A stretch of 64,000 nucleotides of DNA from Gammaproteobacteria bacterium (GCA_965243395.1 CBDEUS010000001.1:1120001-1184000); one strand, 5' to 3'; numbered from the stretch's first letter, positions 5,930 to 33,676 are shown. Made by a program: numbers and translations. Notes: a model not told the origin generated them from the sequence alone.

Positions 5930-6523
5930 TTATACTTTTCTCTTGAGATAAAAAAACAATCGAATTCCGAGTAGTACAGCTAAAATAATAGCGTATATCA
6001 TCGGTTCACGTGTATCAATTTTTACCATCCACCAAAAATGCAGTACTGCAAGTATTGCAATTATGTACACCAAACGATGCAATTGAATCCATTTATATTG
6101 CAAACGTTCAACCATTTTATTCGTTGAGGTTACAGCAAGTGGAATAAGCAATATCAACGCAGAAAACCCTGCGGTAATAAAAGGTCGCTTAATTACATCA
6201 TCTATAATTTCACTAAAATCAAAAAACTGATCTAGCACCACATAGGAGGTCACGTGTGTACACACATAAAAGAATGCAAACAGACCAAACATACGTCGAT
6301 ATTGAATAATATTATTCCAACGAAAGATTCTAATTATCGGTGAAAATGCAAGTGTCAATAATAGTATACGTAAGGCCCAATCACCTGTATATCGATTGAT
6401 AGTTTCAATAGGATTAGCACCGAACCCTTCAGAATAGAAGCGATAAGCCAGCAATACCAAAGGCAATAACAATAATATAAAGAGTACGGGCTTAATTATT
6501 TTGCCCGATTTATTAGTTAACAC
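5930..6523 (-). CDS. msrQ: Methionine sulfoxide reductase heme-binding subunit
   Basis: RRMFGLFAFFY, KRPFITAG, LAVTS, WIQLHRLVY; follows msrP. Confidence 0.93.
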   Translation of the reverse strand: MLTNKSGKIIKPVLFILLLLPLVLLAYRFYSEGFGANPIETINRYTGDWALRILLLTLAFSPIIRIFRWNNIIQYRRMFGLFAFFYVCTHVTSYVVLDQFFDFSEIIDDVIKRPFITAGFSALILLIPLAVTSTNKMVERLQYKWIQLHRLVYIIAILAVLHFWWMVKIDTREPMIYAIILAVLLGIRLFFYLKRKV

Positions 6524-6558
6524 AGTTTTCTGGGTGTTTTATTCTAGTTTTATATAAG

Positions 6559-7524
6559 TTAGAAATTTTTCTTAAGATCCATACCTGTATATAAGCTTGC
6601 CACTTGGTCTCCATAGCCATTAAAAGGTAGTGTTTCTCGTTTTAAAAATTCTCCGATTCTTCGCTCTCGCTTTTGACTCCATCTTGGGTGATCTACTTCT
6701 GGGTTCACATTAGAGTAAAAACCATATTCTCTTGGGCCAGCAACATTCCAGCTTGTTGCAGGCTGCTCCGCCAGAAAGTTAATACTGACGATAGATTTAA
6801 TACTTTTAAATCCATACTTCCAAGGCACAACTAAACGCAAAGGTGCTCCATTTTGATTCGGCAACTCTTTACCATATAAGCCGACAGCTAAAATTGTTAG
6901 CGGATGCATGGCTTCATCAATTCGCAAACCTTCTCGATAAGGCCAGTCTAAAACACTTCGTTTTTGACCTGGCAAATTGTCAGGATCTAAAATAGTTTTG
7001 AATTCAACAAACTTGGCTTTAGAAGTAGGTTTAAATTTCTTCAAAATAGGTCCAAGCTCAATACCCACCCACGGAATTACCATTGACCAAGCTTCTACAC
7101 AACGTAAACGATAAATTCTTTCTTCAAGTTTTGCAGGCGATATAAAATCTTCTAAATCAAATTCACCTGTTTCTTCACACTCACCAGTAACCTCTACACT
7201 CCAGGGTTTAACTTTCAAGTGGTGCGCATTACGTTTTGGATCACCCTTATCTAAGCCTAACTCATAAAAATTATTGTAGCCCGTTACCGCATCAAAAGGA
7301 GTTAACTCATCTTTAGTGGAATATTCGCTTTTGCTGATGTTTTCAAAATTAATATCTGCAGATCCAACTACTGGCCACATGGCTAAAGAAGGTGCCAGAG
7401 ACATTGCAGTAATAGACGCAGAATTTTTTATAAATTTTCTACGTTCTTTGTATATTGCCTGATCGGTAACATCAGACTCGGTTAAATCCATAGGCTTTCG
7501 TACTTTTATCAACATGCTCATCAA
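6559..7524 (-). CDS. msrP: Periplasmic methionine sulfoxide reductase, Mo catalytic subunit
   Basis: Tat motif RRKFIK; [47 protein letters not shown]. Confidence 0.96.
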
Positions 7525-7658
7525 TGCCTTAGTAATCAGTTATTTATTTAGTATTAGAGTAAATTATATTGTAACGGTTCAGAGATTCATCCACCTTGCG
7601 TGCATAATCTTGTACTGTCCAGCCTAATAGACCGGACTTACGACTAATTAATGACCAA

Positions 7659-8030
7659 TCAGTTATTGGAAAAATATGAACTCAGTAGATCTACCAGTTC
7701 TTTAGGGTCAAATGGCTTCTCGAATACGCCTATTGCTCCATTTTGAATTGCAGTGTCTTTTACGGCTCCATACATAGCGGTGATAAATACAATAGGAATT
7801 ATAGCATTTTCATTGATTAATTTCTGTTGCAATTCAAGACCCGTCATACCAGACATATCTTGATCTAATACTAAAACGCCTTCACTGGGTTTAGGATGTG
7901 CTTCTATAAATGCTTCAGCTGAATGAAATACTTCAACATCATAACCACGTTTTCGTAATATCAAAGTGTGTGAATGACACACTATTCGATCATCATCCAC
8001 TAGATAAATTTTAGTTGCACTTGAAGACAA
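7659..8030 (-). CDS. Single-domain response regulator (FixJ-like receiver, no output domain)
   Basis: LVDDD, LDQDM phosphoacceptor, FITA, EKP. Confidence 0.85.
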   Translation of the reverse strand: MSSSATKIYLVDDDRIVCHSHTLILRKRGYDVEVFHSAEAFIEAHPKPSEGVLVLDQDMSGMTGLELQQKLINENAIIPIVFITAMYGAVKDTAIQNGAIGVFEKPFDPKELVDLLSSYFSNN

Positions 8031-8567: not shown

Positions 8568-10280
8568 TTACCAAGCAGCAATTCCAAAGCCACTACTTGG
8601 AATGTCAGAGTCTGCTTGAACTGGAGGATAGCGACCCTCTAATTGCAAGTCACCCACTCGGCAATCATCATCACCTGTTGGGTTACCAGCCATATCAAGC
8701 TTATCCCAAATCGTATCTTCACCTGCACAATCTTCAATGACTCTGTAAATTGCGATGGTTGTGAAACCACCTGGTGGATACAACCAATCACCTGAGCTAT
8801 TTTGTCCGATTGCAAATGGCACAGGAGTGTTCAATGCATAAAGATATTCAGTGTCCTTTGGATTTTGGCTAAGTGCTAGATCCAATCCACCTGCTTGATA
8901 CAAGAAATCTCTTTGATCGGGCTGAATTATTCCTCTGTCTCCATCGGTTGCTGGAGAGCTGGAAATTCTATGACGGAAGTTTTCCACTACACCAGAGAAT
9001 TGAGGCACACCATCAACAACAGTCACAGGTGGTCCACCGTCTTCCATAATACAAGTTGTTAAATCCATTCTACGAATAGAAATACCTGAGTTGAAGAAGG
9101 CTTGTGCATACACTGTACTGGTACGTGTTGAAATTTGTGACCAACATGTGTCATCACCAAGGTCAGGCTTGTTTGGTTGAATCCGAACTTTGGCACCAAA
9201 CTTGTTGACAGTAAATTGTGAAGTACCGCCTTGACCACGCTGTTGGAAACTACCATGCGTCATTATCACGCAGTCGTTAAAGTTTCGTCCTTTAACAGGC
9301 AATACAGAAAAACCAAAGTTATCATTACCGGAAGTTTCACTTACAACGGGGTTAGTGAAACGTGGAGCAATATCATCTGGGCTAGCTCCATCAAAGTTAT
9401 AACCTAACATTCTCGCTATACCTCTAGCGATACGAGAACGGTCTCGAATAGGAACACCCCTTCTATTTAACTTGATGACTTCCACGATATCATCTTCCGT
9501 ACCATTTCCTAACGCAAAGAAAGTATTACGTTGTGAAACAATCAACTGACGCCCTTCGTTCAAGAATGACATTTGCGCCGGATCACCGTTCTCGTCACGT
9601 GTAGGTCCATGCGCAATTCTTCGGAATGTACCTCTACGATTGTTAAATCTGTAAATCGTAAATGAAGTTCCTTCAAAATTTTCAATCTCTGGACGCTCGC
9701 CACAAGTAATACCTGTGGGGGCTAAGAAACCAACGGGTAAGCCTGGGCAACCGTTGAACTCAACTTCACCGCTACCGGCGTTGACTGTGGCCACTAAGTC
9801 ACGATTAATTCCGAACGCTCTTCGCGAATCGCGATCAACAGAACGTGGTTCTTGACCAACTGTTGATGCTGTATCAGTAAGTGTTACATCACATTTGTTA
9901 ACACGGAATGCAGAAACAGATCCAGCTAAGCTATCACTTGTAGGATCAAATCCAGCATTAATCATCATTACATACTGAGTTCCTCTATACTCTTTTACGA
10001 TTACAGAGAACTGACCTGATGTAACAATGCCGTCATCGTTACCATAGCCACCGGATTCTGCGCGCTGTACTTCTGTAAGAGTTCCATCTGATGCTCTTGC
10101 AAAAACAATCAGGCGGTTTTGCTGTGGATTACCATCATCATCACGCTTTACCCGATTTTCGTTTACATATACCGCGCCTTTGGTTAAGTCATAACCGCAG
10201 TCGCGCGCCATCACACCAGAAAATGGAGCTAATAGAAGCACCATTCCTAGCGATAGCATAATTGATATAGATATTTTCAT
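8568..10280 (-). CDS. Secreted lactonase-like beta-propeller protein
   Basis: GGAGG then ATG at 10280 (MKISISIMLSLGMVLLLAPFSGVMA signal peptide). AVYVNEN...LIVFARASDGTLT...SGGYG and NAGSG repeats are typical of the lactonase propeller family; ends FGIAAW; Cys-rich. Confidence 0.7.
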   Translation of the reverse strand: MKISISIMLSLGMVLLLAPFSGVMARDCGYDLTKGAVYVNENRVKRDDDGNPQQNRLIVFARASDGTLTEVQRAESGGYGNDDGIVTSGQFSVIVKEYRGTQYVMMINAGFDPTSDSLAGSVSAFRVNKCDVTLTDTASTVGQEPRSVDRDSRRAFGINRDLVATVNAGSGEVEFNGCPGLPVGFLAPTGITCGERPEIENFEGTSFTIYRFNNRRGTFRRIAHGPTRDENGDPAQMSFLNEGRQLIVSQRNTFFALGNGTEDDIVEVIKLNRRGVPIRDRSRIARGIARMLGYNFDGASPDDIAPRFTNPVVSETSGNDNFGFSVLPVKGRNFNDCVIMTHGSFQQRGQGGTSQFTVNKFGAKVRIQPNKPDLGDDTCWSQISTRTSTVYAQAFFNSGISIRRMDLTTCIMEDGGPPVTVVDGVPQFSGVVENFRHRISSSPATDGDRGIIQPDQRDFLYQAGGLDLALSQNPKDTEYLYALNTPVPFAIGQNSSGDWLYPPGGFTTIAIYRVIEDCAGEDTIWDKLDMAGNPTGDDDCRVGDLQLEGRYPPVQADSDIPSSGFGIAAW

Positions 10281-10328
10281 ATCCTCCCTCCTAGTAGTCA
10301 TAAGATACGAGACATGCAGTTGCGATCA

Positions 10329-10364
10329 TGCAAAGCAATCCGCAAATAACTTCATCACTGAAGT
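10329..10364 (-). promoter_or_regulatory. Candidate ANTAR-target tandem hexaloop hairpins
   Basis: Minus strand ACTTC[AGTGAT]GAAGT-TATT-TGCGG[ATTGCT]TTGCA; both loops have A1 and G4; adjacent to an ANTAR regulator gene. Confidence 0.55.
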
Positions 10365-10648
10365 GCATGCTTCATTTTTTTGAAATTTAGTTTTGATTGT
10401 TTAAGAACGTCGCCTTAATCAAATCTAACTAAATTTCATTTGCCACTGCGTAAACACGCAGCGAACAAAACTAAAATTCGTAGATTGATTCAGGCTGGTA
10501 CGAGGCCTGTAAGAATTGAAACGTCAAAGTTTTGGACGTTTGATGGCTCTTAATTGTATTAAGAGTAAAGAAATGGACTGTGTTTAGGTCCGTGAGTGAA
10601 TTTCAAAGATTTTGGAAATTACTCTTTTATGCTTATATTTAGCTATGC

Positions 10649-10677
10649 TTTATAGGCCAATAATGCAATTAAATCAA
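10649..10677 (-). promoter_or_regulatory. Putative sigma70 promoter for the beta-propeller gene, giving a ~360-nt leader
   Basis: TTGATT-17 nt-TATAAA on the minus strand. Confidence 0.5.
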
Positions 10678-10791
10678 GGACTAATCGACTTTTTTAGATT
10701 GAATTAAAATTCAATTTTGCGAAACTTGATAAATTTTAGTGAGTTACACCAAGATTTCTTAATTTACTTAAAGCACTTAGCTTAAATAAGG

Positions 10792-11415
10792 TTAATTTAA
10801 CTTGGCTTGGGATCGCTCAAACATATCGCCCGTAAAACGGTTTACATTGTCAATCGATTTCACTAGCTCGGAAGCGATCAAACCTACCTTTTTGCGTTGA
10901 TTTCGAGATTCTGTACGTAACATCTCAAATGCTTGATCACTACTGATGTTAAAGCGCGCCATAAGAATGCCAATCGCAATGCTTGTTTCACGCCCTTGCT
11001 GCAAAGCTATGTTTAATTGTGACTCAGTCTGTTTCAGTGACCTGATATCCTCTGCCCGTTGCATCGCTGACTCAATAGTAGGTAACACATGCTGTACATC
11101 AATAGGTTTGACTAAATATCCTAGTGCACCGGCATTAGCCGCTTCTGTGACAAACTCATCATCTGAATATGCAGAGAGAAATATACAAGAAACATCTGCT
11201 TTATCCCTGAGCTCCAGGGCAGCATCGACGCCTGAAATATCAGGCATTCTAAAATCCATAATGGCAAGATCAGGTTTGACTTCACAACCGATTTCTACAG
11301 CTTGCTTACCATTCTCTGCCTCTAAGACATCGAAATCATACTGACGCAGGTTTTTAGCTAGAGTAACCCGAATTACGCGGTCATCATCCGCGAGTAGTAT
11401 TTGTGCTTTAGACAT
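10792..11415 (-). CDS. REC-ANTAR response regulator (PdtaR/EutV-like)
   Basis: Receiver (LADDD, IMDFRMP, FLSA, YLVKP), coiled coil, ANTAR (IAIGILMARFNISSDQAFEMLRTESRNQRKKV). Confidence 0.92.
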   Translation of the reverse strand: MSKAQILLADDDRVIRVTLAKNLRQYDFDVLEAENGKQAVEIGCEVKPDLAIMDFRMPDISGVDAALELRDKADVSCIFLSAYSDDEFVTEAANAGALGYLVKPIDVQHVLPTIESAMQRAEDIRSLKQTESQLNIALQQGRETSIAIGILMARFNISSDQAFEMLRTESRNQRKKVGLIASELVKSIDNVNRFTGDMFERSQAKLN

Positions 11416-11597: not shown

Positions 11598-14500
11598 TCA
11601 TATTGCTTCTAGAATATTGAGCTCTGAAGCTAACATATTTAAAACAACCGGTGGGTAAAGTGTAAGCGTTGCTTTTACATAATTATCGACTTGTTCATAC
11701 TGTAACTCAGCACCTTCTGGTGGCATTAAAGACTGCACCATCCCTAGGCCCACACCCCCACTCTCCAAATTCTCATCAAAATCAAATGAGTCCAGTTTCT
11801 CAATGATATTGGCGACAGCGATCTCAACCTTGTCGTCTTGATTTTTTATTATTACTCGCACTCCATTTGAATCGACAGCTTCTACTGCACGATGCTTCAT
11901 TGCATTGGTGACTAATTCAGAAATAATAAGTGACACTGCTACGGTCTCTTCTTCCCATAACTCTAAATGCTCGGAATCTTCACACAGCACTTCAAAAGAA
12001 ATTTCTTGGGAAAATAATTTACTTGATGCTTGTGTTATACGACTAACAAGTTCAACCAAATTTACTAACCTATACTCAGAATCAATCATCAAATTATTAA
12101 CAATAGAAATAGTATCTACCTGGTTAATAGAAGTTACCAAAACATCACGAAGTTGAGGATACGTATCTAAATTGACTTTTAATAACCCAACGATTGCTTG
12201 TAAATTATTTTTAATACGATGTCGCATTTCACGACTGACTTCATCACGTTGCACCTTAATATGATCAAGCCTCTCTTGCTGGCTTGTACTACGCTGAGTT
12301 ATATCTCGACATAATATTCTCAGCTCTCGTGGCATACCTGCTTGAGCTTGGATCAAACGTAACCGTTGGTGAGTATTTATAAGATCACCCTCTTTTGTAA
12401 GCATTCGCACTTCCATTTCAAACTCATTCACTTGATCTTCAAAAACAACACTAAAGTGACGACTGGCACGACGAATATCATTCTCGTGAATCAAGTTCCA
12501 AATTGGTTTATGCAACAACTCATCTTTTTCATATCCTAAATATTCTGAGCAAAATTGATTCACGGATTGAATAATGCCGTTAGCATCAACTGAGAAATAC
12601 ATATCCGGTGCATTTTCGTATAAATCCTGCAATCTATTTTGACTTCGAAGCAATTGTTGTTCCATTTCAACGCGTTCACTAACATCATGAACAAGAGCCA
12701 AACATGTTTGGTTTGATTTAAATAAATTAGCCGATTTAGACGCTGCCCATTCTGTATGCTTAACTTTTCCTTCGGCATCCTGAATTTGCAAACTAAACTG
12801 GTTTTCATTTGCATCAGCTTCCAACATGTATTTATGCAGTTTATCTAAGGCTTCCTTCTGATTTGGGTGTTTTAATGGCCAGTGGTTTGGTGACTTCCCG
12901 AAGACTTCATTCTCACTCCAACCTAAAATTTGCCTGGCTTGTTCAGACCATCTTGTTATAGCGCCCTCAACATTCCATTCGATGATGGCCGTAGGAGAAT
13001 TTTGCAAATGCAGATCCAATGTTTGTTTGGCTTTTTCCTGTCTTTGTTCAGCAAATTGGCTTTGTAATCGATTTGATATCCACTCCGCCATCATCTGCAC
13101 ATACTGTATTTCACTGTCTGTAAATTCATCTGCACGTGGTTCAATACTAGAAAAATTTAAAGTGCCGTAAGGTCTATTATCCAAATACACTGGAGCACCA
13201 ATATAGGCTTCAAGCTGAAGTTCAGAATACGCGGGATGATGAACAATCTCAGTCTGCTTGGCATGCGCAAATCCCATTGCATTTCTCGATTCAATTAATA
13301 ACTGACAATAGGTCAACCCTAGTTCAAATTTATCACCTGATTGTATTTTATAAGATGATGATGTGGTGTGTACTTGCATCACAGTATAACGATCGCCCTC
13401 TATATAAGAAAAAATTCCACATTTCATATCTAAATGCTGACAACCACTTACTAGCAAACATTGTATTTGGTTATGTAGAGTGGTTTCTTCTACTGAAATA
13501 ATAGAATAAAAAGAATGTAAGGCATCTTCATTACGCCGTAATGCAATTTCAGCATGTTTACGTTTGGTAATATCCGCGGTCGTTCCAATCACTCGTAATG
13601 GTTTTCCATTTTCATCGCGTTCTAAAATTCGGCCACGATCATGCACCCATCGCCATTCACCTGACTTGTGTTTAAGACGATGTTCATGCTCATAAAAATC
13701 GGTATCACCTTGTATGTGAGCATTAAACGCATGTTTTGTTTCGTTTAAGTCATTTTTGTGAATCAAAGATTCCCATGGGTGCTTGTCATGCAATAGCTCT
13801 TCTTTTAAATAACCTATTAATTCATACCAGCGATCATCGAAATAAAATTCATCCTTACCTAAATCTATTTCCCATACACCATCTTGTGTACTTTCCAACG
13901 CAAGCTGTAAGCGTTGCTGCTGTTTGCGCACTTTCTCTGTGGCTTCGAATCGTCGTTGACGGTCTTTTTGATACAAATAAAACGCAATAACAACTGCAGC
14001 AAGAATCGCTAAAAACTTAAGCAGCCCGTTAAGAATGATATCTTTCAATCTTTCAGAGAATAACGTTGCATTATGAAGCGATACCACATCCCACTGTGTA
14101 CCACTAATGGAAGCCACTGCACCTACACGTTGCATATCATCGGGCTCTAAATAAACATCATTGACTAATTCTAAATCTGTGCCTGGAGTAGCTAATTCGA
14201 CAAACCCTGGTACATCTTGGCGCCACAGTACAAGCTGGTAATCAACATTTTGATGTTTGTAAAGTAGTGGTTGTACTAATTCAGGTGGAAAGCTAACACC
14301 GAAAATTCCAAGAAAATTATTTTTGTGATTCCAAGGAACAATAATATTGAAATGGTCATGCTCAGAATTACGATGCATTCGCACAGCGTACTCTATCTGA
14401 CTTTCACTGATTGACGGCAATAAATAAACTTCTGGTTTGTTTTGCTGTGTGCCATCCGAATCAATTATTAATTTGCCTTGCTTATCCCATATAAGAAAAT

Positions 14501-14927
14501 TAAGTGCATCAGGGTAGCTACTACTAATCTCACGATTAAGTATTCTAATTGCGGGAGAATCAGTCTTTTTACTTTGCTTGGCTTCATTTAGTAACTCAGT
14601 ATGATTCTCAGCAAACATACCCAGACTGTATTCCATCTGCTCAACATAATTCGCTATTTCATTAGCTGCAGACCATGATGAGCGCTGCATCAATTCTGTT
14701 TGAGACTTTTCGAATTGCGAGTAGTGCTCCCAACCACTCCACAGAAGCAAAGCTAAAACAACAGACAATAGGAACACTACAACTGAAAGCGGAACCCTTT
14801 GCTTAACAAAAGGTAACTTCGCAGTTGAAGCAAACCAAGTTTTGCTATCAGCCGAGATAACTCCTCCTTTACGGCAACCTCCCAACCAATGCGTTACTCT
14901 TATAATTCTTACTCGATGTACGAGCAC
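11598..14927 (-). CDS. Membrane sensor histidine kinase: periplasmic domain, PAS-GAF-PAS-PAS, HisKA_2
   Basis: Two TM segments; PAS/PAC (DGVWE...RWVHDRG...DIT); GAF (YIGAPV...YGTLNFSS); H-box EMRHRIKNNLQ; N-box ELVTNAMKH. Start uncertain. Confidence 0.9.
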   Translation of the reverse strand: MLVHRVRIIRVTHWLGGCRKGGVISADSKTWFASTAKLPFVKQRVPLSVVVFLLSVVLALLLWSGWEHYSQFEKSQTELMQRSSWSAANEIANYVEQMEYSLGMFAENHTELLNEAKQSKKTDSPAIRILNREISSSYPDALNFLIWDKQGKLIIDSDGTQQNKPEVYLLPSISESQIEYAVRMHRNSEHDHFNIIVPWNHKNNFLGIFGVSFPPELVQPLLYKHQNVDYQLVLWRQDVPGFVELATPGTDLELVNDVYLEPDDMQRVGAVASISGTQWDVVSLHNATLFSERLKDIILNGLLKFLAILAAVVIAFYLYQKDRQRRFEATEKVRKQQQRLQLALESTQDGVWEIDLGKDEFYFDDRWYELIGYLKEELLHDKHPWESLIHKNDLNETKHAFNAHIQGDTDFYEHEHRLKHKSGEWRWVHDRGRILERDENGKPLRVIGTTADITKRKHAEIALRRNEDALHSFYSIISVEETTLHNQIQCLLVSGCQHLDMKCGIFSYIEGDRYTVMQVHTTSSSYKIQSGDKFELGLTYCQLLIESRNAMGFAHAKQTEIVHHPAYSELQLEAYIGAPVYLDNRPYGTLNFSSIEPRADEFTDSEIQYVQMMAEWISNRLQSQFAEQRQEKAKQTLDLHLQNSPTAIIEWNVEGAITRWSEQARQILGWSENEVFGKSPNHWPLKHPNQKEALDKLHKYMLEADANENQFSLQIQDAEGKVKHTEWAASKSANLFKSNQTCLALVHDVSERVEMEQQLLRSQNRLQDLYENAPDMYFSVDANGIIQSVNQFCSEYLGYEKDELLHKPIWNLIHENDIRRASRHFSVVFEDQVNEFEMEVRMLTKEGDLINTHQRLRLIQAQAGMPRELRILCRDITQRSTSQQERLDHIKVQRDEVSREMRHRIKNNLQAIVGLLKVNLDTYPQLRDVLVTSINQVDTISIVNNLMIDSEYRLVNLVELVSRITQASSKLFSQEISFEVLCEDSEHLELWEEETVAVSLIISELVTNAMKHRAVEAVDSNGVRVIIKNQDDKVEIAVANIIEKLDSFDFDENLESGGVGLGMVQSLMPPEGAELQYEQVDNYVKATLTLYPPVVLNMLASELNILEAI

Positions 14928-15055: not shown

Positions 15056-17347
15056 TTACCATTTAATTCCATGGTGCTCAATGGCTTTAATTTTGGCTTC
15101 TGAATTGCTCAATTCCGGAATATCTAATCCATCCAGCTTGTTACGTAATTCTTGTGTTGCTTCTCTTGCCTCAGATGCATTTCGAATTGCAGTAGGAGTG
15201 ATAAGAACGAGAAGCTCTGTGCGCTCAGATGACTTGGTTGTAGTACCGAACAATGGGCCCAGTACTGGTAAATTACGTAATCCTGGGACACCTATGTTGC
15301 CATCAGAATTTGTATCTTGAATAAGGCCCCCAAGTACAATTGTATCGCCACTCGGGACAGAAACTGAGGTGCTTACTTCACGTTGATCAATTGTAGGTGA
15401 ATCTATTGCAGATGAAGTCGTGGGATTTGCAGTACGTATATTTTGATAGATATCCATTACAACCGTACCATTTTGACTCACTCTGGGTGCTACTTGCAGC
15501 GTCACACCTGTTTCAACAAACTGAATAGTACTTGTCACTAAATCACTTGTACCCGTATTCGTAGATTCTGAAGTACGCACAGGGACTTGATCACCTACAT
15601 TTATTGAAGCCGTATGATTATCAAGCACCATTAATGACGGTGATGAAAGAACTTGCATCTTGTCATCTTGAGCAAGCGCACTTAGAACAGCTCGAACAAT
15701 TCCACCCGAATCTACTAATGAATAAGAAAATCCACCGTTTGTAGTCGCACCAATTAGTCCTGCATCTGCACCACCTACACCATCACCTAATCTACCAATA
15801 CCCGTATTTCCATCAATGTCATTATTTCTGAAAAACCACTGTGTTCCATATTCCAAATCACCTGTGAGTTCTACTTCTACAATAGTAGCTTCAAGCAATA
15901 CTTGTAATGGCGAAATATCTAAACGTTTAATTGCATCTTCTATGTCTTTATATTCTTCATTTGTGGCTTTTACTACCAAAGCATTATTTTCTTCATCAGC
16001 AATAATTTTAATTGGACTGTTATTATTACCACTTCCATTCGTTCCACTATTGAATGTATCTGAAGAAGAAAAACGTTCTGTATTAGGACTTAAACTTCCT
16101 GGCAGTGAAGCACCTGCACCAGTTGGAACACCTGCGCTTATTCCATCAGCATCGCCACTAATAAATCCAGAATCCGAATTACCAATACCAGAGCTTTGAC
16201 TCACTCCACCCGATAATCCAGGTGCTAGGGCAGCAGGATCTTGTCCTTCTTGCGTGGATACGTCCGCATCAAATAACTCCGACAATATTTGCGCTAAGTA
16301 TCCAGCACGTAAATTTTGTACAAAATATACGTGCAAGGTGCGTGCAATGGTGTTATCGACCCGATCTAAGCGATCGATCCACTGTGAAACCGTATTTAAA
16401 TAACGACGCTGTGGAGTTATAGCGAGAATTGCATTTAAACGTTCTATTTCAACAAAGCGTAAAATATCGACTTGTTTCTCTTGTCCACTAAAACCAAAAA
16501 TTGAATTTAATTCTTCTATAACTTTTTTAGCAGAAGATGAGGTCAATCTGAAAATGGCAGTAGACATCCCTTTGAATTGATCTACATCAAATATCTCCAC
16601 TGTATCCAGCATATTCTTTAATTCCGCCTGGGTACCCGAAACTAACAAAATATTTCTACCAGGATCTGTTTGGATCATGGCATTTTCACCTTGCAAGGAA
16701 CGCAGAACGTTTTTCATTTCTGTTGCTGAAATATACTGCAATGGCACAACAATAATTTGATAACCTTTTTGACGATCTAACTCATAAGAAGGCGTTACTA
16801 CACTACTTAAGCCCTCGCTGGCTGGAAGTATTTGAAAAATTCCTTCATTTTCAGCCAGTACCGCATTGTTAGCTTTGAGTATATTTTCCATCACGGGTAT
16901 CAATGCCTCTTTAGCCAATGGTCGACCCGTTTTAAGGCTGACCGTGCCTGTTACACGCTCATCAACCACATATGCACGACCCAACAAATCTCCAAGAATA
17001 GTCGCAGCAACCTCTTCAATGGGTGCATCTTGAAACATTAATGTGATATCACCAGTAGCACTATCGGATAAACCTGATGATCCAGGTCTTGCTGTAAACG
17101 TACCCGTTCCGGGATAAAACTCTGCAGCACGCTCTTCAGGTTTAGTAGGAGTATTAGATTCTCCATCTGCTGATGTAGCAGTATCAACTTCTATATTTTT
17201 TGTTGAAGTCTTAGCAACATCATCTACGCTAACTTCTGGCTGATTATTAGAAGAATTTGTTGTCGTGCAACCACTGAAAATAAAAACCAACGCTACAAAT
17301 ACAAAATGTAAGCATTTTTGAAAATCTGAAAGTTTGAATCTATTCAT
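15056..17347 (-). CDS. gspD: T2SS secretin, probably a lipoprotein
   Basis: Secretin C-domain (QVLLEATIVEV, SSPSLMVLDN, LGGLI, TELLVLITP); lipobox IFSGC. Likely start ATG 17347. Confidence 0.93.
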   Translation of the reverse strand: MNRFKLSDFQKCLHFVFVALVFIFSGCTTTNSSNNQPEVSVDDVAKTSTKNIEVDTATSADGESNTPTKPEERAAEFYPGTGTFTARPGSSGLSDSATGDITLMFQDAPIEEVAATILGDLLGRAYVVDERVTGTVSLKTGRPLAKEALIPVMENILKANNAVLAENEGIFQILPASEGLSSVVTPSYELDRQKGYQIIVVPLQYISATEMKNVLRSLQGENAMIQTDPGRNILLVSGTQAELKNMLDTVEIFDVDQFKGMSTAIFRLTSSSAKKVIEELNSIFGFSGQEKQVDILRFVEIERLNAILAITPQRRYLNTVSQWIDRLDRVDNTIARTLHVYFVQNLRAGYLAQILSELFDADVSTQEGQDPAALAPGLSGGVSQSSGIGNSDSGFISGDADGISAGVPTGAGASLPGSLSPNTERFSSSDTFNSGTNGSGNNNSPIKIIADEENNALVVKATNEEYKDIEDAIKRLDISPLQVLLEATIVEVELTGDLEYGTQWFFRNNDIDGNTGIGRLGDGVGGADAGLIGATTNGGFSYSLVDSGGIVRAVLSALAQDDKMQVLSSPSLMVLDNHTASINVGDQVPVRTSESTNTGTSDLVTSTIQFVETGVTLQVAPRVSQNGTVVMDIYQNIRTANPTTSSAIDSPTIDQREVSTSVSVPSGDTIVLGGLIQDTNSDGNIGVPGLRNLPVLGPLFGTTTKSSERTELLVLITPTAIRNASEAREATQELRNKLDGLDIPELSNSEAKIKAIEHHGIKW

Positions 17348-17736
17348 AAAAACCTTATGTTTAACAAGCAAACAAAGAATTGTTTGATAAACACCAAACA
17401 ATTACATAATTAAATGTAAGTTGTATTAAACACGATGGTTAACGCACAATTAATTGCACGCTACCTCCTCCAATATATTTATTATTTTCGATACTTAAGA
17501 GGCTATTGCTCTGAAGCTAATTGCACCAAATTAGTGAGGGCGGGGTCTGGGGCCGTAAAAGGTGCTTATTTATCAATTATTTGTCTACACGTTACGCGGC
17601 AGACTCTAAAGAGTCAATGGAAATCTAAAATACAGTATAAATCTTAAGGTTAAATTATTTTTATTGGGATTAAATAATCAGTGCTTTATTAGTGAGTTAA
17701 CTAAGGACTACAAACAAAGTAAAAAATTTTTAGATT

Positions 17737-18654
17737 TTAATCATCAAAAATTTTAGCGCCAAGAGCCTCTAATGCCCGTAATTCATCCTCTGTAATATCT
17801 TCATCATCATAAAAATCTTCATCATCAATTTCTAACGATGCATCTTCCCAGTCACCCAATAATTCATCGCCTAAATCACTGTAACCGCTATCTTCGTTAT
17901 AGCTAATATCTTTATCGTTTACTGCAGGTATTTTTATTGGTGATTTTCTTAACGAACTTCCCCCCGACTTAGTTTCACGTATTCTGGGCACTTCATTAAT
18001 ATTATCTGACTGACCCGTTTTCGTCTTATTGTTCCATGATTTACTCGTCACTTTTTGTTTTGGCAGATCTTCCGTATCACCATCCGCAGATCTCTGATAA
18101 GCACGAACCGCACTACTCGTTGTACGATTTATTTTACTTTTGTTTAATTGACTAATCAGCTTTGCTTGTTTTGCTTTACTACTCCCTTCAATAGGTGTGA
18201 CGAAAAGCTTATATTCTATTTCTGCATTTTGAAACTTCACATAATCAGATGATACTTCCGCAATTTTCCAATTTTTATAATTTTCCCCAACTTTTAATCT
18301 TTCCATCTGTTTTGCTTTTGTATCTGCAATAATTCCAACTTGCACGTCTGTACTTCTTGCAGTCCCTACTAAAATGAGATGTGATAATTCATTAACAGTA
18401 GTAACTTGACTTAGAGTATTTGAACCCGGCGCTGGAAACCGTCCTTTTACAAACAAAGGCCTTTGAGTGATTTCAGAATAATTTTCTATGTCACCTAATA
18501 ATCCAAATTGCGGTAGCTCGTAGTCAATGGATTTAGCAATATCTTTATCAGTGTTTGGTATATCTAATTCATTTGAATCCAGCGGGTAAGACATCACTTG
18601 ATAGGCAAATAGTGCTAACAATGCTAAACAAATTGTACTCAAGAATATCTTCAC
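17737..18654 (-). CDS. T2SS GspC/XpsN-like protein with an acidic C-terminal tail
   Basis: N-terminal TM, RPLF motif, LVGT..., lies between gspM and gspD; D/E-rich tail. Confidence 0.65.
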   Translation of the reverse strand: MKIFLSTICLALLALFAYQVMSYPLDSNELDIPNTDKDIAKSIDYELPQFGLLGDIENYSEITQRPLFVKGRFPAPGSNTLSQVTTVNELSHLILVGTARSTDVQVGIIADTKAKQMERLKVGENYKNWKIAEVSSDYVKFQNAEIEYKLFVTPIEGSSKAKQAKLISQLNKSKINRTTSSAVRAYQRSADGDTEDLPKQKVTSKSWNNKTKTGQSDNINEVPRIRETKSGGSSLRKSPIKIPAVNDKDISYNEDSGYSDLGDELLGDWEDASLEIDDEDFYDDEDITEDELRALEALGAKIFDD

Positions 18655-18663
18655 AATAACTTC

Positions 18664-19254
18664 CTAACTTGTCTCTTCCGCAGCCAAAAAACCTGACACA
18701 TCAAAACGGATATCTAAAGCTTCATCAGAATTATTAGAGTTCTGACTTCTAAAAGTAGTTCGATATCCTCTACCGATATTTATTTTGTCGATTATCAGCA
18801 CTGGAATATGGGCTTCAAGATCATATATGAAATTACGCAAACTACTTATATCTGCACGACAATGCACGGAAACTTTAATTTGACGTTCATCCAGATTTCC
18901 ACTGGTCACTGGTTGAGTGCTTAATATTTTAGCTCCATTACGAGTTAATACATCTTTGATTATTCCTTGTAATTCAGCAGAAATAATCGCGGCTTTACCA
19001 TGCTCAAAATAATATTCTTGTTCCTCATTGTATGCTTGCAACTTTGCTAGTTTGTTTGACAAACCTTTAGTTCTACCAGATATCGCTTTATATTGTGTTA
19101 GTCGATGTTGCAATGATGCAACCTCATCTTTAGTGCTGTTAAACACAGCATAAGCAGGTAGTATTACTAAAAATAATAAAAGCACTACTGCAAAAACAAG
19201 TACTGAAAGTGCAGCTAACTTATGTTTTGATTCTGGCATCTGTGGAATATTCAT
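18664..19254 (-). CDS. gspM: T2SS protein M (XpsM type)
   Basis: TM plus coiled coil; AELQ, LEAHIPVLIID; position in the cluster. Confidence 0.8.
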   Translation of the reverse strand: MNIPQMPESKHKLAALSVLVFAVVLLLFLVILPAYAVFNSTKDEVASLQHRLTQYKAISGRTKGLSNKLAKLQAYNEEQEYYFEHGKAAIISAELQGIIKDVLTRNGAKILSTQPVTSGNLDERQIKVSVHCRADISSLRNFIYDLEAHIPVLIIDKINIGRGYRTTFRSQNSNNSDEALDIRFDVSGFLAAEETS

Positions 19255-19266
19255 TATTTTTCTTAA

Positions 19267-20343
19267 CTATGAATTTACTTCACGCTTGATTTGCGCCGTT
19301 ATGGAATAACGCTCCAAGCCATCACCGCCACTTTGTGTGACTGGAGCTGCAAACCGAATATCATCAAACATTCCTGTTTGATCAATCACTGGAATCAATT
19401 CAGACGCTGACGCCGATAAACCTTGGATGGATAGCAGCCCTTCCTCCACACTTAAACGTTGAACATATGTGTGATCAGGCATCACTTGTGTTAATAAATT
19501 TAACATCTCAATGATACTGGGATTGTCCTCTTTAATATTAACTAAATACCCCACTTGATCTTGCATTTTTGAATATTCACTTTGTAACTTTTTTACTTTT
19601 TGTACCGTATGCTCCAAGCTCTCTAGCTCAGACGAAAGTTTATTAATATGAATATAATTAATCGCCAAAGGAGTTACCCCGGTTAAGATTAATAATCCTG
19701 CTGCTGCAGTTGCCAACCATTTGATAGATGAATTGTTATTTCTGTTAATACCTGCTTGTGAACGGAGTAAATTTACCCCACTCAAGTTTTGATCAGGATC
19801 ATCAGCATTAATAATATCAATGCTCTGTAGATGCACATTACTATTTTCAATTGCAGCAACAACAGGATTTAGAATTTCTTTTCTTATAACAATCAACAGT
19901 ACCCTAATGAGCTGTTTATCTTTAAAGCGCTCTTCAATACGATAATCAAAGTAGACATCTTCTTTATCAAATGGAGTATAGCGGTCCATTTCATACTGAA
20001 TCACTTCATATAGATTTTCTTCTGTATTAGCTGGTAATGATACCTGTCGTGTAAGCACTTCACTTTTATCAATATGTACATTTAATGCTAAGCTCTCTTT
20101 TGATGCTTCACTATTAAACAGTTCCTCTAACATTTGAGTTTTGTTTTCTTTTGACTGTTCAATATGTAGTAATAATTCATCACTGCTATTTAGAACTTGA
20201 AGCTGATCCGGATCTAATTTTAATAGTAAAGAATCTTTATTACGCCCAATGTTTTTATTTCTATCTCCAGGCAATAGCAAAAACAACCCCTCTGCCCACC
20301 AGATGAGTAATTCTTTTACGGACTGTGTAATTGAAGATAAAAT
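19267..20343 (-). CDS. gspL: T2SS protein L (PilN-domain, XpsL type)
   Basis: LTRQVSLP...EMDRYTPF...VYFD; C-terminal QGLSASASELI. Frame extends upstream through WWAEGL to an ATT at 20343 preceded by AGGA. Confidence 0.8.
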   Translation of the reverse strand: MLSSITQSVKELLIWWAEGLFLLLPGDRNKNIGRNKDSLLLKLDPDQLQVLNSSDELLLHIEQSKENKTQMLEELFNSEASKESLALNVHIDKSEVLTRQVSLPANTEENLYEVIQYEMDRYTPFDKEDVYFDYRIEERFKDKQLIRVLLIVIRKEILNPVVAAIENSNVHLQSIDIINADDPDQNLSGVNLLRSQAGINRNNNSSIKWLATAAAGLLILTGVTPLAINYIHINKLSSELESLEHTVQKVKKLQSEYSKMQDQVGYLVNIKEDNPSIIEMLNLLTQVMPDHTYVQRLSVEEGLLSIQGLSASASELIPVIDQTGMFDDIRFAAPVTQSGGDGLERYSITAQIKREVNS

Positions 20344-20417
20344 AGTATGTTCCTGTAGTTATAATTATTATGAATACTTTTGCAGATTATGGTGAAGCAG
20401 CAATTTTAGTTGCTAAT

Positions 20418-21245
20418 TTATCCCAACTTCCACCCTAATATTGCAAAAGGTTCAAACGTATTGCCTCTTTGTAATCGCACAATACATGTAATTGTTGTCG
20501 AGTATCCATTTGGATCTCTAGCATTAACATGCAATGTATAAATTAAACCCCCTGTTTCTGTAAAATAGTCAGTAGAAAAATCTTCACTTTGACCTGCATC
20601 AGTCACATTGTTGAGGGCATTTTTAACTATATTAGAAGCTAATGCAGTGTTGACACCTAAATCTTGTGCATGAATAGTTACATAAGGTTTAACTCTATTA
20701 AAAATCTCTGGTGTCATTCCAAGTAGAAGTGACAACTCATCAATACTATCAAACTCATCATCTTTAGATTCATACGCGAGCCCGTGAGCCGCATAATCCT
20801 GATCTTCTGCTCCATTTGCTCGCTTTAGACTATCCCGATCGCGCCAATCACCTATTGCGCCTGCAATTAATGCGCTGTTTTTGTCGTTTACACCAACTGC
20901 AATGAACAATGATTCTAATAAGTCTATTGGGGCCAGATTAATATCCACTTTCCCTGATTCATCCACAATGGATACAGATATTTTTACATCATCTATTTGA
21001 TAACTATAGTTTGGTTTTTTAATTATGTAGCCTTGCAGTTCATCACGACTAATTAGCTTATGTACACTTAACATTAAAGCACCTTCCGCTGCATGTTTAG
21101 TTTTAAAACTACTTACAACATTATTAGCCAAACTCAAACTGGCGCGAGCTTGGTATGAAACTGAACCAGCAATTACAGCTAAAAATGCTGTAATCCATAA
21201 TACGGTTATTAAAGCAAATCCCTTATGTGTACGATGCATAGACAT
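20418..21245 (-). CDS. gspK: T2SS minor pseudopilin K
   Basis: G|FALITVLW, DESGKVDINLA, DWRDRD, HhH-like ELSLLLGMT. Confidence 0.9.
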   Translation of the reverse strand: MSMHRTHKGFALITVLWITAFLAVIAGSVSYQARASLSLANNVVSSFKTKHAAEGALMLSVHKLISRDELQGYIIKKPNYSYQIDDVKISVSIVDESGKVDINLAPIDLLESLFIAVGVNDKNSALIAGAIGDWRDRDSLKRANGAEDQDYAAHGLAYESKDDEFDSIDELSLLLGMTPEIFNRVKPYVTIHAQDLGVNTALASNIVKNALNNVTDAGQSEDFSTDYFTETGGLIYTLHVNARDPNGYSTTITCIVRLQRGNTFEPFAILGWKLG

Positions 21246-21877
21246 TACGGTAAAACATAAGCTCCATATCTTGTTTCAACGATCAATGGTGGCCATTCAA
21301 CGGATTCAACAATTGGTTCAAGGGATATAGAAACTTTTGTTGGAAGTGCGCTTTGATTCAGCCAGTTTTTATACCAATTTAATACTCCGGTTTTTTTATT
21401 TACACCAAAGTACTCAAACTTAATATTTTTAACATTTTTAATTAATTTTACATCTCGTCCACTAAACCGCGCCTTGCCTGAAAAATAACTATTTGCAGGC
21501 AGATACCGTACGCTTAGATTCAATGCACCATTTTGTTTTTGCTTAAAAATTTCATAAATATAAAGATAATCATCTAAACCATATTGAGGAGAACGTGCTA
21601 GAAAGATCATCCTGTCTGCATCACCATTAAAATATTTATTTTTTGATTTATCTTCTTGAATGGGATAAAAAACAGCCTCACTTAGTACCTTACGCAAAAA
21701 ACGCTGTGCACTGACAACTTCATCTAGGTTATTTTGATGTTCATCAACTTTTGCCCACACCTTATTTCCAAAAGTAAACCCATTTACACACAGTGTTACT
21801 ACAATTGAAATGATGACAAGCGAAATCAGTAGCTCGATTAAAGTTAATCCCGATTGATGAAGTGTATGTTTATTCAT
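21245..21877 (-). CDS. gspJ: T2SS minor pseudopilin J
   Basis: QSG|LTLIELLISL; C-terminal W...LP...WP. Confidence 0.85.
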   Translation of the reverse strand: MNKHTLHQSGLTLIELLISLVIISIVVTLCVNGFTFGNKVWAKVDEHQNNLDEVVSAQRFLRKVLSEAVFYPIQEDKSKNKYFNGDADRMIFLARSPQYGLDDYLYIYEIFKQKQNGALNLSVRYLPANSYFSGKARFSGRDVKLIKNVKNIKFEYFGVNKKTGVLNWYKNWLNQSALPTKVSISLEPIVESVEWPPLIVETRYGAYVLP

Positions 21878-21882
21878 TTTTA

Positions 21883-22275
21883 CTAGGCACTTGCTAATCT
21901 GAAAGTCATTGTCTTTAAAGAACGCATACCTTTTTTACTTTTCCAAAATACATTCAACACAATTTGATACCGATTCACTTTTTCAATTGTGTTATTTGAT
22001 GCATCCAAAGCTTGAACCTCTAATTTCCAGTGATATCGGTTGTTATAAGCACCCTCACTCACGCTTGGCAATGTGTCTACTCTTATTCCGATTTCGGCCA
22101 GATGTGAATCTGCATACATAGACGCTTGAGCATAATCGTCTGCAAGACTAGAACCTTGTAATGCTGAGGAAAAAGCTTGATAGGCAACGCCGAGCGAAAT
22201 GGCCAACACTGATAGAGCCACCAGCGTCTCTAATAAGGTAAATCCATTTAAGTGTCTATATTTATTATTAACCAT
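21883..22275 (-). CDS. gspI: T2SS minor pseudopilin I
   Basis: G|FTLLETLVAL; position in the cluster. Confidence 0.85.
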   Translation of the reverse strand: MVNNKYRHLNGFTLLETLVALSVLAISLGVAYQAFSSALQGSSLADDYAQASMYADSHLAEIGIRVDTLPSVSEGAYNNRYHWKLEVQALDASNNTIEKVNRYQIVLNVFWKSKKGMRSLKTMTFRLASA

Positions 22276-32914: not shown

Positions 32915-33005
<91 letters not shown>

Positions 33006-33044
33006 AAAAAGGAAAGGTCTTTTATTAAAAGACCTTTCCTTTTT
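33006..33044 (+). terminator. Intrinsic terminator of tRNA-Ser
   Basis: AAAAAGGAAAGGTCTTTT-ATT-AAAAGACCTTTCCTTTTT. Confidence 0.9.
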
Positions 33045-33484: not shown

Positions 33485-33676
33485 TTAACCAGTTGACTCA
33501 TTCACATTAGTTTTTTCACGCTTTATGCGCTCATAGATTTCTTCACGATGCACTGCAACATCGCGTGGAGCATTTACTCCAATACGCACCTGATTACCCT
33601 TAACTCCTAACACTGTGACGGTTACATCATCACCAATCATCAGTGTTTCACCAACTCTCCTGGTCAAAATCAGCAT
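33485..33676 (-). CDS. csrA: Carbon storage regulator
   Basis: [16 protein letters not shown]...VRIGVNAP...VHREEIY. Confidence 0.98.

Follow-up and report, generated by a model that had tools for sequence, protein, structure and literature searches.

A 490-nt spacer between two minus-strand genes (10302-10791) in the 64,000-nt stretch of gammaproteobacterial DNA analysed here (the window) contains a row of short hairpins that are alike in structure and different in sequence, and the question raised by this locus is what kind of element such a row represents. We propose, with a probability of roughly 0.6, that the array makes up the 5′ half of a structured cis-acting leader and that the phosphorylated ANTAR response regulator encoded next to it most likely acts on this leader through a choice between two folds.

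On the minus strand, the array opens with H1, the first hairpin of the leader (10594-10624, inner stem 10599-10620), followed by H2 with the stem GGAC/GTCC and a 9-nt loop (10575-10591), H3 with an 8-bp stem and, in the window, a 3-nt loop (10547-10565), H4 with the stem AAACGTC/GACGTTT and a 9-nt loop (10519-10541) and H5 with the stem CAGGC/GCCTG and a 9-nt loop (10491-10509), all of them recovered by folding and H2 to H5 also by alignment. Position 10471 is the centre of a weak CGAA...TTCG hairpin. The hairpin observation itself, first made in a sequence-only reading, is confirmed: the four hairpin strings quoted there are all found in the minus-strand sequence as written, and the regular spacing that it described holds, with centres 25-31 nt apart from H1 to H5 and the weak 10471 hairpin about 29 nt beyond H5. 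Its count of six hairpins stands for the window, where they are present beyond chance, but relatives have not kept the 10471 hairpin, which belongs to one strand of a long-range helix (strand A, below). Against 500 dinucleotide shuffles of the minus strand of 10446-10624, six hairpins of at least 4 bp compare with a shuffled mean of 2.19, a count of six being reached by 1 of the 500, and five hairpins of at least 5 bp compare with a mean of 1.30, a count of five being reached by none. Folding energies agree with this, since none of 200 shuffles was as good as the 153-nt array stretch on either strand (minus strand, -28.6 kcal/mol, z -4.92; plus strand, -43.1 kcal/mol, z -4.35); over 10446-10624 the corresponding values are -38.6 and -52.4 kcal/mol.

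The leader is about 360 nt long, runs on the minus strand and lies between the gene for a receiver-ANTAR (REC-ANTAR) response regulator and the gene for a 570-aa beta-propeller protein. The regulator (10792-11415, minus strand) passes the Pfam cut-offs for both of its domains (Response_reg 2.4e-25, 89.3 bits against a cut-off of 30.2; ANTAR 7.9e-12, 45.2 bits against 27.3), and its best solved relatives are EutV (6wsh, 3.8e-30) and then Rv1626 (1s8n, 2.2e-28). Upstream of it, a sensor histidine kinase of 1109 aa (11598-14927, minus strand) combines Cache, PAS, GAF, PAS, HisKA_2 and HATPase_c_2 domains, and it adjoins the regulator gene in every locus whose contig extends far enough. We take the pair to be a two-component system of the PdtaS/PdtaR type, that is, a GAF/PAS kinase with HisKA_2 and a REC-ANTAR regulator. 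The domain make-up of both proteins matches such systems, and Rv1626 is the second-best solved relative, whereas the kinase found here is much longer, with Cache and additional PAS domains. The genes immediately upstream of the kinase gene (15056-22275, minus strand) are type II secretion genes encoding a GspD secretin and GspM-like and PilM/PilN-like proteins.

Downstream of the leader, the propeller gene (8568-10280, minus strand, within an open frame of 8568-10301) probably encodes the 570-aa product and is preceded by a Shine-Dalgarno sequence, AGGAGGGAGG (10283-10292), the likely start codon being ATG at 10278-10280 (together 10278-10292, minus strand). The protein begins with a signal-peptide-like helix and matched no Pfam or NCBIfam family; its language-model neighbours are lactonase-type seven-bladed propellers (score 0.95), and its structural model, of moderate quality (pLDDT 66.8), has lactonase-like seven-bladed propellers as best fold match (E 1.9e-8, TM 0.65 by target). 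From the signal-like N-terminus and the fold, the product is predicted to be a secreted beta-propeller protein, and it could be a substrate of the adjoining type II secretion system. The propeller gene is followed on its 3′ side (5930-8030, minus strand) by genes for a CheY-like protein with a receiver as its single domain (7659-8030) and for an MsrP/MsrQ-like pair, of which one member (6559-7524) is a molybdopterin oxidoreductase and the other (5930-6523) a membrane protein resembling ferric reductases. Both receiver and oxidoreductase likewise follow the propeller gene in one other genome (G004, locus L023), where there is a tandem second propeller copy in a 798-aa open frame, 80% identical to the window's protein over residues 33-577.

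Leader, propeller gene, kinase and REC-ANTAR regulator are inherited as one module. Among 14 same-genus genomes, 7 have spacer DNA with 67-79% identity, and a search of 26 more distant genomes gave no match. Kinase, regulator, spacer of about 500 nt and propeller gene follow one another in this order in 8/8 loci of the genus, and regulator, spacer of 400-500 nt and propeller gene are kept in 5/5 carrier genomes of three other genera. Among 56 genomes of the family, which are also the order-level sample, the propeller gene is present in 13, and an orthologue of the regulator (identity of 60% or more) was found in the same 13 only. Four further genomes, from another genus, have only an ANTAR paralogue with 41-44% identity; in the one paralogue locus examined, fxsA and groES/groEL follow and there is no comparable leader. 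A covariance model of H2-H5 (R1) gave one match in each of the 13 carriers, which is so by construction, the model having been built from these same leaders; the informative part of this search is that it found no extra copies in the 13 carriers and no match in the other 43 genomes. R1 matched a single place in the window's own 2.58-Mb genome (E ≤ 1) and had no matches in 150 other genomes sampled across the class. Repeated extragenic palindromes and CRISPR repeats were rejected as candidates on the grounds that the array occupies one place in this 2.58-Mb genome and its hairpins differ in sequence. Records of the carriers are titled as uncultured Thiotrichales or Gammaproteobacteria MAGs and, within the genomes searched, the leader occurs only in a single family of uncultured marine gammaproteobacteria. 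An Acidimicrobiales MAG includes a 2.8-kb contig (locus L028) that encodes a propeller protein with 77% identity, which probably reflects a binning error rather than gene transfer.

We collected 18 distinct orthologous upstream regions as a leader set, five of them added by scans of species-representative genomes and metagenome contigs, and scored H2-H5 on a MAFFT alignment of these 18 leaders (378 cells, 23 pairs). Overall, 91.8% of the 378 cells were paired and 12 of the 23 pairs had changed on both sides. None of 500 shuffles matched the observed percentage of paired cells, the number of double-changed pairs, the number of double-changed cells or the covariation score, and 54 of 500 matched the observed count of further pair types. 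Slid-partner controls for H2-H5 gave 23-38% pairing. A model-fitted alignment gave 92.1% pairing, again with 12/23 pairs double-changed, and the covariation seen in both alignments upholds the earlier claim that structure is kept without sequence identity, which points to RNA.

Individual hairpins vary in how they are maintained. Directly upstream of H2, an H1 hairpin is predicted in all 18 leaders from unrelated sequences, GC-rich in most relatives. The GGA/TCC pairs of H2 are invariant (18/18), its closing pair is C-G or U-G and its two outer pairs covary. H3 is present in 12 sequences, comprising the window's clade and its nearest relatives, and no counterpart could be aligned in the six sequences of the second clade; in most relatives it has a 5-bp stem and a 7-nt loop (7 nt in 10/12), with double changes at 3/5 pairs in the MAFFT alignment and 2/5 in the model-fitted one. 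H4 is paired in 18/18, two of its internal pairs switching from CG to UA and from UA to GC in six sequences, and H5 has 97.8% of cells paired and 3/5 pairs double-changed. Stems of H2-H5 measure 4-8 bp and linkers between neighbouring hairpins about 5-20 nt. Across the 18 leaders, the loops are 9-12 nt in H2, 9-10 nt in H4 and exactly 9 nt in H5 (18/18). Their first position is C in 16 (H2), 12 (H4) and 18 (H5) of 18 leaders and otherwise T, never A, and their fourth is a purine throughout, G in 4 (H2), 4 (H4) and 13 (H5) of 18 and A in the rest. The inner architecture that the sequence-only reading had picked out as common to four hairpins (an extra C, then CW...WG) proved peculiar to this genome, the inner pair being kept in 1/18 (H2), 7/18 (H4) and 3/18 (H5) orthologues.

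The downstream half of the leader contains helices that exclude one another. RNAalifold, applied to eight sequences of the genus, proposed a 22-bp long-range helix, A:B, whose strand A (10474-10496, minus strand) takes in the H5 3′ arm and the 10471 hairpin. Inside A:B lies H6 (10440-10469, minus strand, with a GC core hairpin at 10446-10461), recovered in alignment folds. A long hairpin, B:C (10382-10437, with B at 10411-10437 and C at 10382-10405, minus strand), identified from pairing in 10 sequences, excludes A:B. Next come a P2-like hairpin with the hexaloop CATGCA (10359-10374, minus strand), the 3′ arm of which is the 5′ arm of hairpin T (ACTTC-AGTGAT-GAAGT, 10349-10364); T and the TATTTG after it (together 10343-10364, minus strand) are terminator-like but weak.

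These helices were scored on 10 genus-level sequences. Pairing in A:B reached 93.6% of cells over 22 pairs compared with 31-51% for slid partners, and in B:C it reached 100% for the outer 9 bp and 96.6% for the inner 6 bp; H6 contained 26 G-U and 2 A-C cells. As complete folds, H5+H6+B:C+P2 was 94.7% paired and A:B+H6+T 92.9% paired (slid controls, 31-53%). Within the genus, A:B and B:C each have one double-changed pair, a slight covariation that is due to the sequence being so conserved. When seven full leaders were folded, the minimum-energy structure used A:B in four and H5+B:C in three, a split that would be expected of a bistable element. Further downstream, P2 had 82.5% of cells paired, and a scan of 12 sequences found a hairpin with the loop [CT]ATGNN, 5-10 nt after strand C, in seven; of the remaining five, two had been mis-anchored. 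Hairpin T had 90% of cells paired and 4/6 pairs double-changed in the 10 sequences, with a run of at least four T after it in 6/10. In thermodynamic models, enforcing A:B or H5+B:C shifted the balance of P2 and T in only 3/10 sequences. For the second clade, H5, an H6-equivalent hairpin and a 9-bp B:C of different sequence are predicted, B:C with double changes, together with a helix between CCCA..GGAA and the stretch that directly precedes the Shine-Dalgarno site and reaches into it; helix A:B could not be demonstrated in this clade.

Known ANTAR targets, as defined in two published accounts (PMC8934654, PMC8164766), are two stem-loops of at least 3 bp each that are joined by a linker of 2-25 nt and capped by hexaloops with A at position 1 and G at position 4; the second of them overlaps a terminator or a ribosome-binding site. 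The array resembles the ANTAR antiterminator RNAs (the EutV/eut leaders, NasR/nasF and AmiR/amiE) in lying in a 5′ leader beside an ANTAR regulator gene, in having adjacent stem-loops with linkers within 2-25 nt and in the logic by which the H5 3′ arm is shared with a competing helix. It is unlike them in having four to six hairpins rather than two, and in loops of 9-12 nt in H2, H4 and H5 (for H3, 7 nt in 10/12 sequences and 3 nt in the window) rather than 6 nt. The first loop position in H2, H4 and H5 is C or U and never A, and at the fourth position G prevails only in H5 (13/18). As to overlap with a terminator or ribosome-binding site, the H5 3′ arm overlaps A:B, which is not a terminator, and P2 overlaps the weak terminator-like hairpin in 7/12 sequences. 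Unlike in the antiterminator RNAs, A:B has no U-tract and is followed by the further alternative helix B:C, and any effect on termination or translation would therefore be indirect. For mycobacterial ANTAR proteins, the targets reported in PMC8164766 are dual hexaloops near ribosome-binding sites rather than a hairpin array.

The earlier suggestion of non-canonical ANTAR sites gains from the REC-ANTAR gene directly upstream, the co-occurrence in 13/56 genomes and the 9-12-nt loops with C at position 1, but the specific architecture by which those sites had been characterized is unconserved. As the array does not match the loops of ANTAR sites, though linked to an ANTAR system, we class the RNA as a non-canonical ANTAR-linked leader; the array is probably a new and unusual kind of target for the adjoining regulator. 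The link between protein and leader rests on genomic linkage, and binding is putative.

The regulator side shows little variation. The ANTAR domain is nearly invariant across both clades of orthologous regulators, and the target is therefore expected in an equally constant part of the leader. The RNA-contact residues of EutV given in PMC8934654 (Arg142, Lys147, Lys149, Glu160 and Met172) correspond to Gly, Ile, Ile, Ser and Arg in this regulator and in all aligned orthologues. Reading these differences as a sign of changed specificity was rejected, since a second ANTAR protein also lacks Arg142, Lys149 and Glu160 in a hand alignment. That protein, of 206 aa with a degenerate receiver-like N-terminus (G000:C1:1186500-1186661, locus L048), is encoded about 2.5 kb past the window's end in the same genome and, we presume, resembles NasT.

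Under the mechanism that we favour, the kinase would phosphorylate the ANTAR regulator, which would then bind the leader, most likely at H5 and a neighbour. We place the recognition site within that portion of the leader which is universally conserved (H2, H4, H5, H6 and B:C) because the hexaloop hairpins are not present in all 18 leaders and the ANTAR domain is near-invariant. Binding would tip the balance between H5+B:C and A:B, the latter consuming the H5 3′ arm, and the choice of fold, presumably turning expression on or off, would be relayed to a downstream platform that differs between clades. In the window's genus, this platform may be a hexaloop hairpin overlapping the weak terminator-like hairpin T, acting through weak termination, and in the second clade a helix that would mask the Shine-Dalgarno region. 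The wider claim, that there is a new class of ANTAR target in which a row of 9-12-nt loops (C at position 1, purine at position 4) tips bistable helices and is relayed to termination or translation, is tentative and less probable than not.

A different placement of the regulator, which we consider improbable but worth weighing, is that it binds hexaloop hairpins in the leader's 3′ half, the array being a folding or stability domain that protects the 5′ end and sets the choice between H5 and A:B. The candidates are P2, whose hexaloop has G at position 4 in 7 of the 12 sequences scanned and whose 3′ arm also serves the next hairpin as its 5′ arm; a dual A..G.. hexaloop of canonical appearance (10329-10364) formed across a 4-nt linker by hairpin T and a second hairpin found in a hexaloop scan (10329-10344, minus strand); and an AAUGUU hexaloop hairpin (UCUU-AAUGUU-AAGA) just before the Shine-Dalgarno site in six relatives of the genus. 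Six distinct dual A..G.. hexaloop pairs occur in the window's 128 kb, counting both strands, and about 0.02 are therefore expected per leader, which gives the pair in the leader some weight. None of the three candidates, however, is kept in all 18 leaders, and the dual hexaloop is not kept in orthologues, being unique to the window's genome. P2 and T were not found in a sequence from a neighbouring genus (G022), and no equivalent stood out in the second-clade folds. The regulator, unlike the hexaloops, is conserved throughout, and the P2 loop has C or U instead of A at position 1. Other A..G.. hexaloop pairs occur in the window at chance level, for example at 32989-33042 (minus strand), about 500 nt from the CsrA gene (33521-33676, minus strand).

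The leader might instead be a self-contained sensor, a riboswitch or the target of another protein, that merely lies beside a two-component system, its large loops binding a ligand or making tertiary contacts. Such a role would suit loops constrained in length and partly in sequence (H5, 9 nt in 18/18), a multi-helix architecture with two competing folds and the failure to match any known RNA family. Assignment to a catalogued family, envisaged earlier as a way of identifying the array, was not borne out: a cmscan search of Rfam 15 with 9800-11300 (both strands, E ≤ 10) returned six matches, the best at 22.2 bits against a gathering score of 80, all of them to unrelated eukaryotic or CRISPR models. 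Full-text literature searches found no description of this leader; related RNAs could be listed in the supplements of ANTAR target surveys. What makes a sensor doubtful, and less probable than binding at the 3′ hexaloops, is that leader and ANTAR regulator occur together without exception in the genomes searched, that ANTAR proteins act on RNA and that no covarying multi-way junction or pseudoknot was found. Loop-to-strand pseudoknots between the H2 or H4 loop and the U-rich strand before H6 were tried and rejected, the complementarities being A/U-rich and unconvincing by eye.

Direction of transcription bears on the remaining alternatives. In mRNA sense, a promoter-like element TTGATT-17-TATAAA (-35-like hexamer at 10672-10677, -10-like hexamer at 10649-10654, minus strand) is kept in 18/18 leaders some 45-60 nt ahead of H2; neither hexamer has more than one mismatch, and the spacer is always 17 nt. 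It is a putative sigma-70-like promoter, from which transcription would start at about 10642. A scan for consensus promoters and terminators listed nothing here, neither this element nor a terminator; it missed the element because the last base of the -10 hexamer is A and not the consensus T. Further conserved blocks lie after the stop codon of the regulator gene and upstream of the -35 element (10690-10747, minus strand), namely GTAACTCACTAAAA (10734-10747), an AT hairpin ATTGAATTTTAATTCAAT (10698-10715) and an A-tract (10690-10697), which may represent an UP element, an operator or the place where the regulator transcript ends. Within the array, wobble cells do not settle the strand (13 G-U and 18 A-C cells in 18 leaders, A-C mostly at helix ends). 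The helices H5, H6, A:B, B:C, P2 and T have 85 G-U and 8 A-C cells, which fits only minus-strand RNA.

On this evidence, we judge it very unlikely that the hairpins form a plus-strand small RNA antisense to the leader, of CsrA/Rsm type or an ANTAR sponge, with its own promoter and terminator. A Csr/Rsm-type RNA was considered first, because of the GGA motifs and the lower plus-strand energy, and dropped for lack of an Rfam match, a kept promoter or a T-run. The plus strand is indeed the more stable (-43.1 against -28.6 and -52.4 against -38.6 kcal/mol), contains several AGG/GGA motifs and has TTTTAT after the hairpin at its end, and there is a CsrA gene in the window; yet z-scores are alike on both strands, the GGA motifs mostly sit in or straddle stems, the last hairpin has no T-run in relatives and there is no match to Rsm, CsrB or any other Rfam family. 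The antisense or sponge idea of the sequence-only reading is further opposed by the mRNA-sense promoter-like element in 18/18 leaders, by the absence of a plus-sense promoter kept across clades on reading of the alignments and by the 85 to 8 ratio of G-U to A-C cells. In addition, the array is never found apart from the downstream gene in the genomes searched.

Two kinds of sponge invite comparison with the array. Like CsrB, RsmY and RsmZ, it is a regularly spaced row of short hairpins, but on the transcribed strand GGA lies in the H2 stem and in none of the loops, and the array goes with one particular downstream gene, has no Rfam match and keeps no independent promoter or terminator in relatives. 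With EutX/Rli55, the sponge for EutV, it would share the make-up of an RNA that bears ANTAR sites and could accommodate several regulator dimers; EutX (PMC8934654) is a separate small RNA with canonical hexaloops, whereas the hairpins here are within an mRNA leader and a separate transcript is not indicated. In second-clade leaders (L024, L025, L026, L043, L044 and L020), a hairpin with an AAGGA/CAGGGA loop stands before the Shine-Dalgarno site and is followed by GGGAGGAG. We take these two features to resemble the consensus of CsrA binding sites.

Least probable of all are DNA-level elements (palindromic operators, repeated extragenic palindromes or a mobile-element remnant), for although all the hairpins are palindromic as DNA and the sequence of some stems is conserved (GGAC/GTCC, CGTC/GACG), pairing survives double changes in 12/23 pairs, H1 keeps its structure alone, there is one copy per genome and G-U is tolerated on one strand only.

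The reading of the array as part of a cis-acting leader for the adjoining ANTAR regulator bears first on the catalogue of bacterial RNAs, as this leader is a well-supported structured RNA absent from Rfam. If the proposed class of target is true, it would be a multivalent, relay-type riboregulation not described for ANTAR proteins. The accepted ANTAR RNA signature is narrow, consisting of two hexaloops with A at position 1 and G at position 4, and target searches have been built on that signature. A leader so closely co-inherited with an ANTAR two-component system, but without this signature in its conserved part, would mean either that ANTAR recognition is broader than the current model or that ANTAR systems may be wired to long multi-helix switches.
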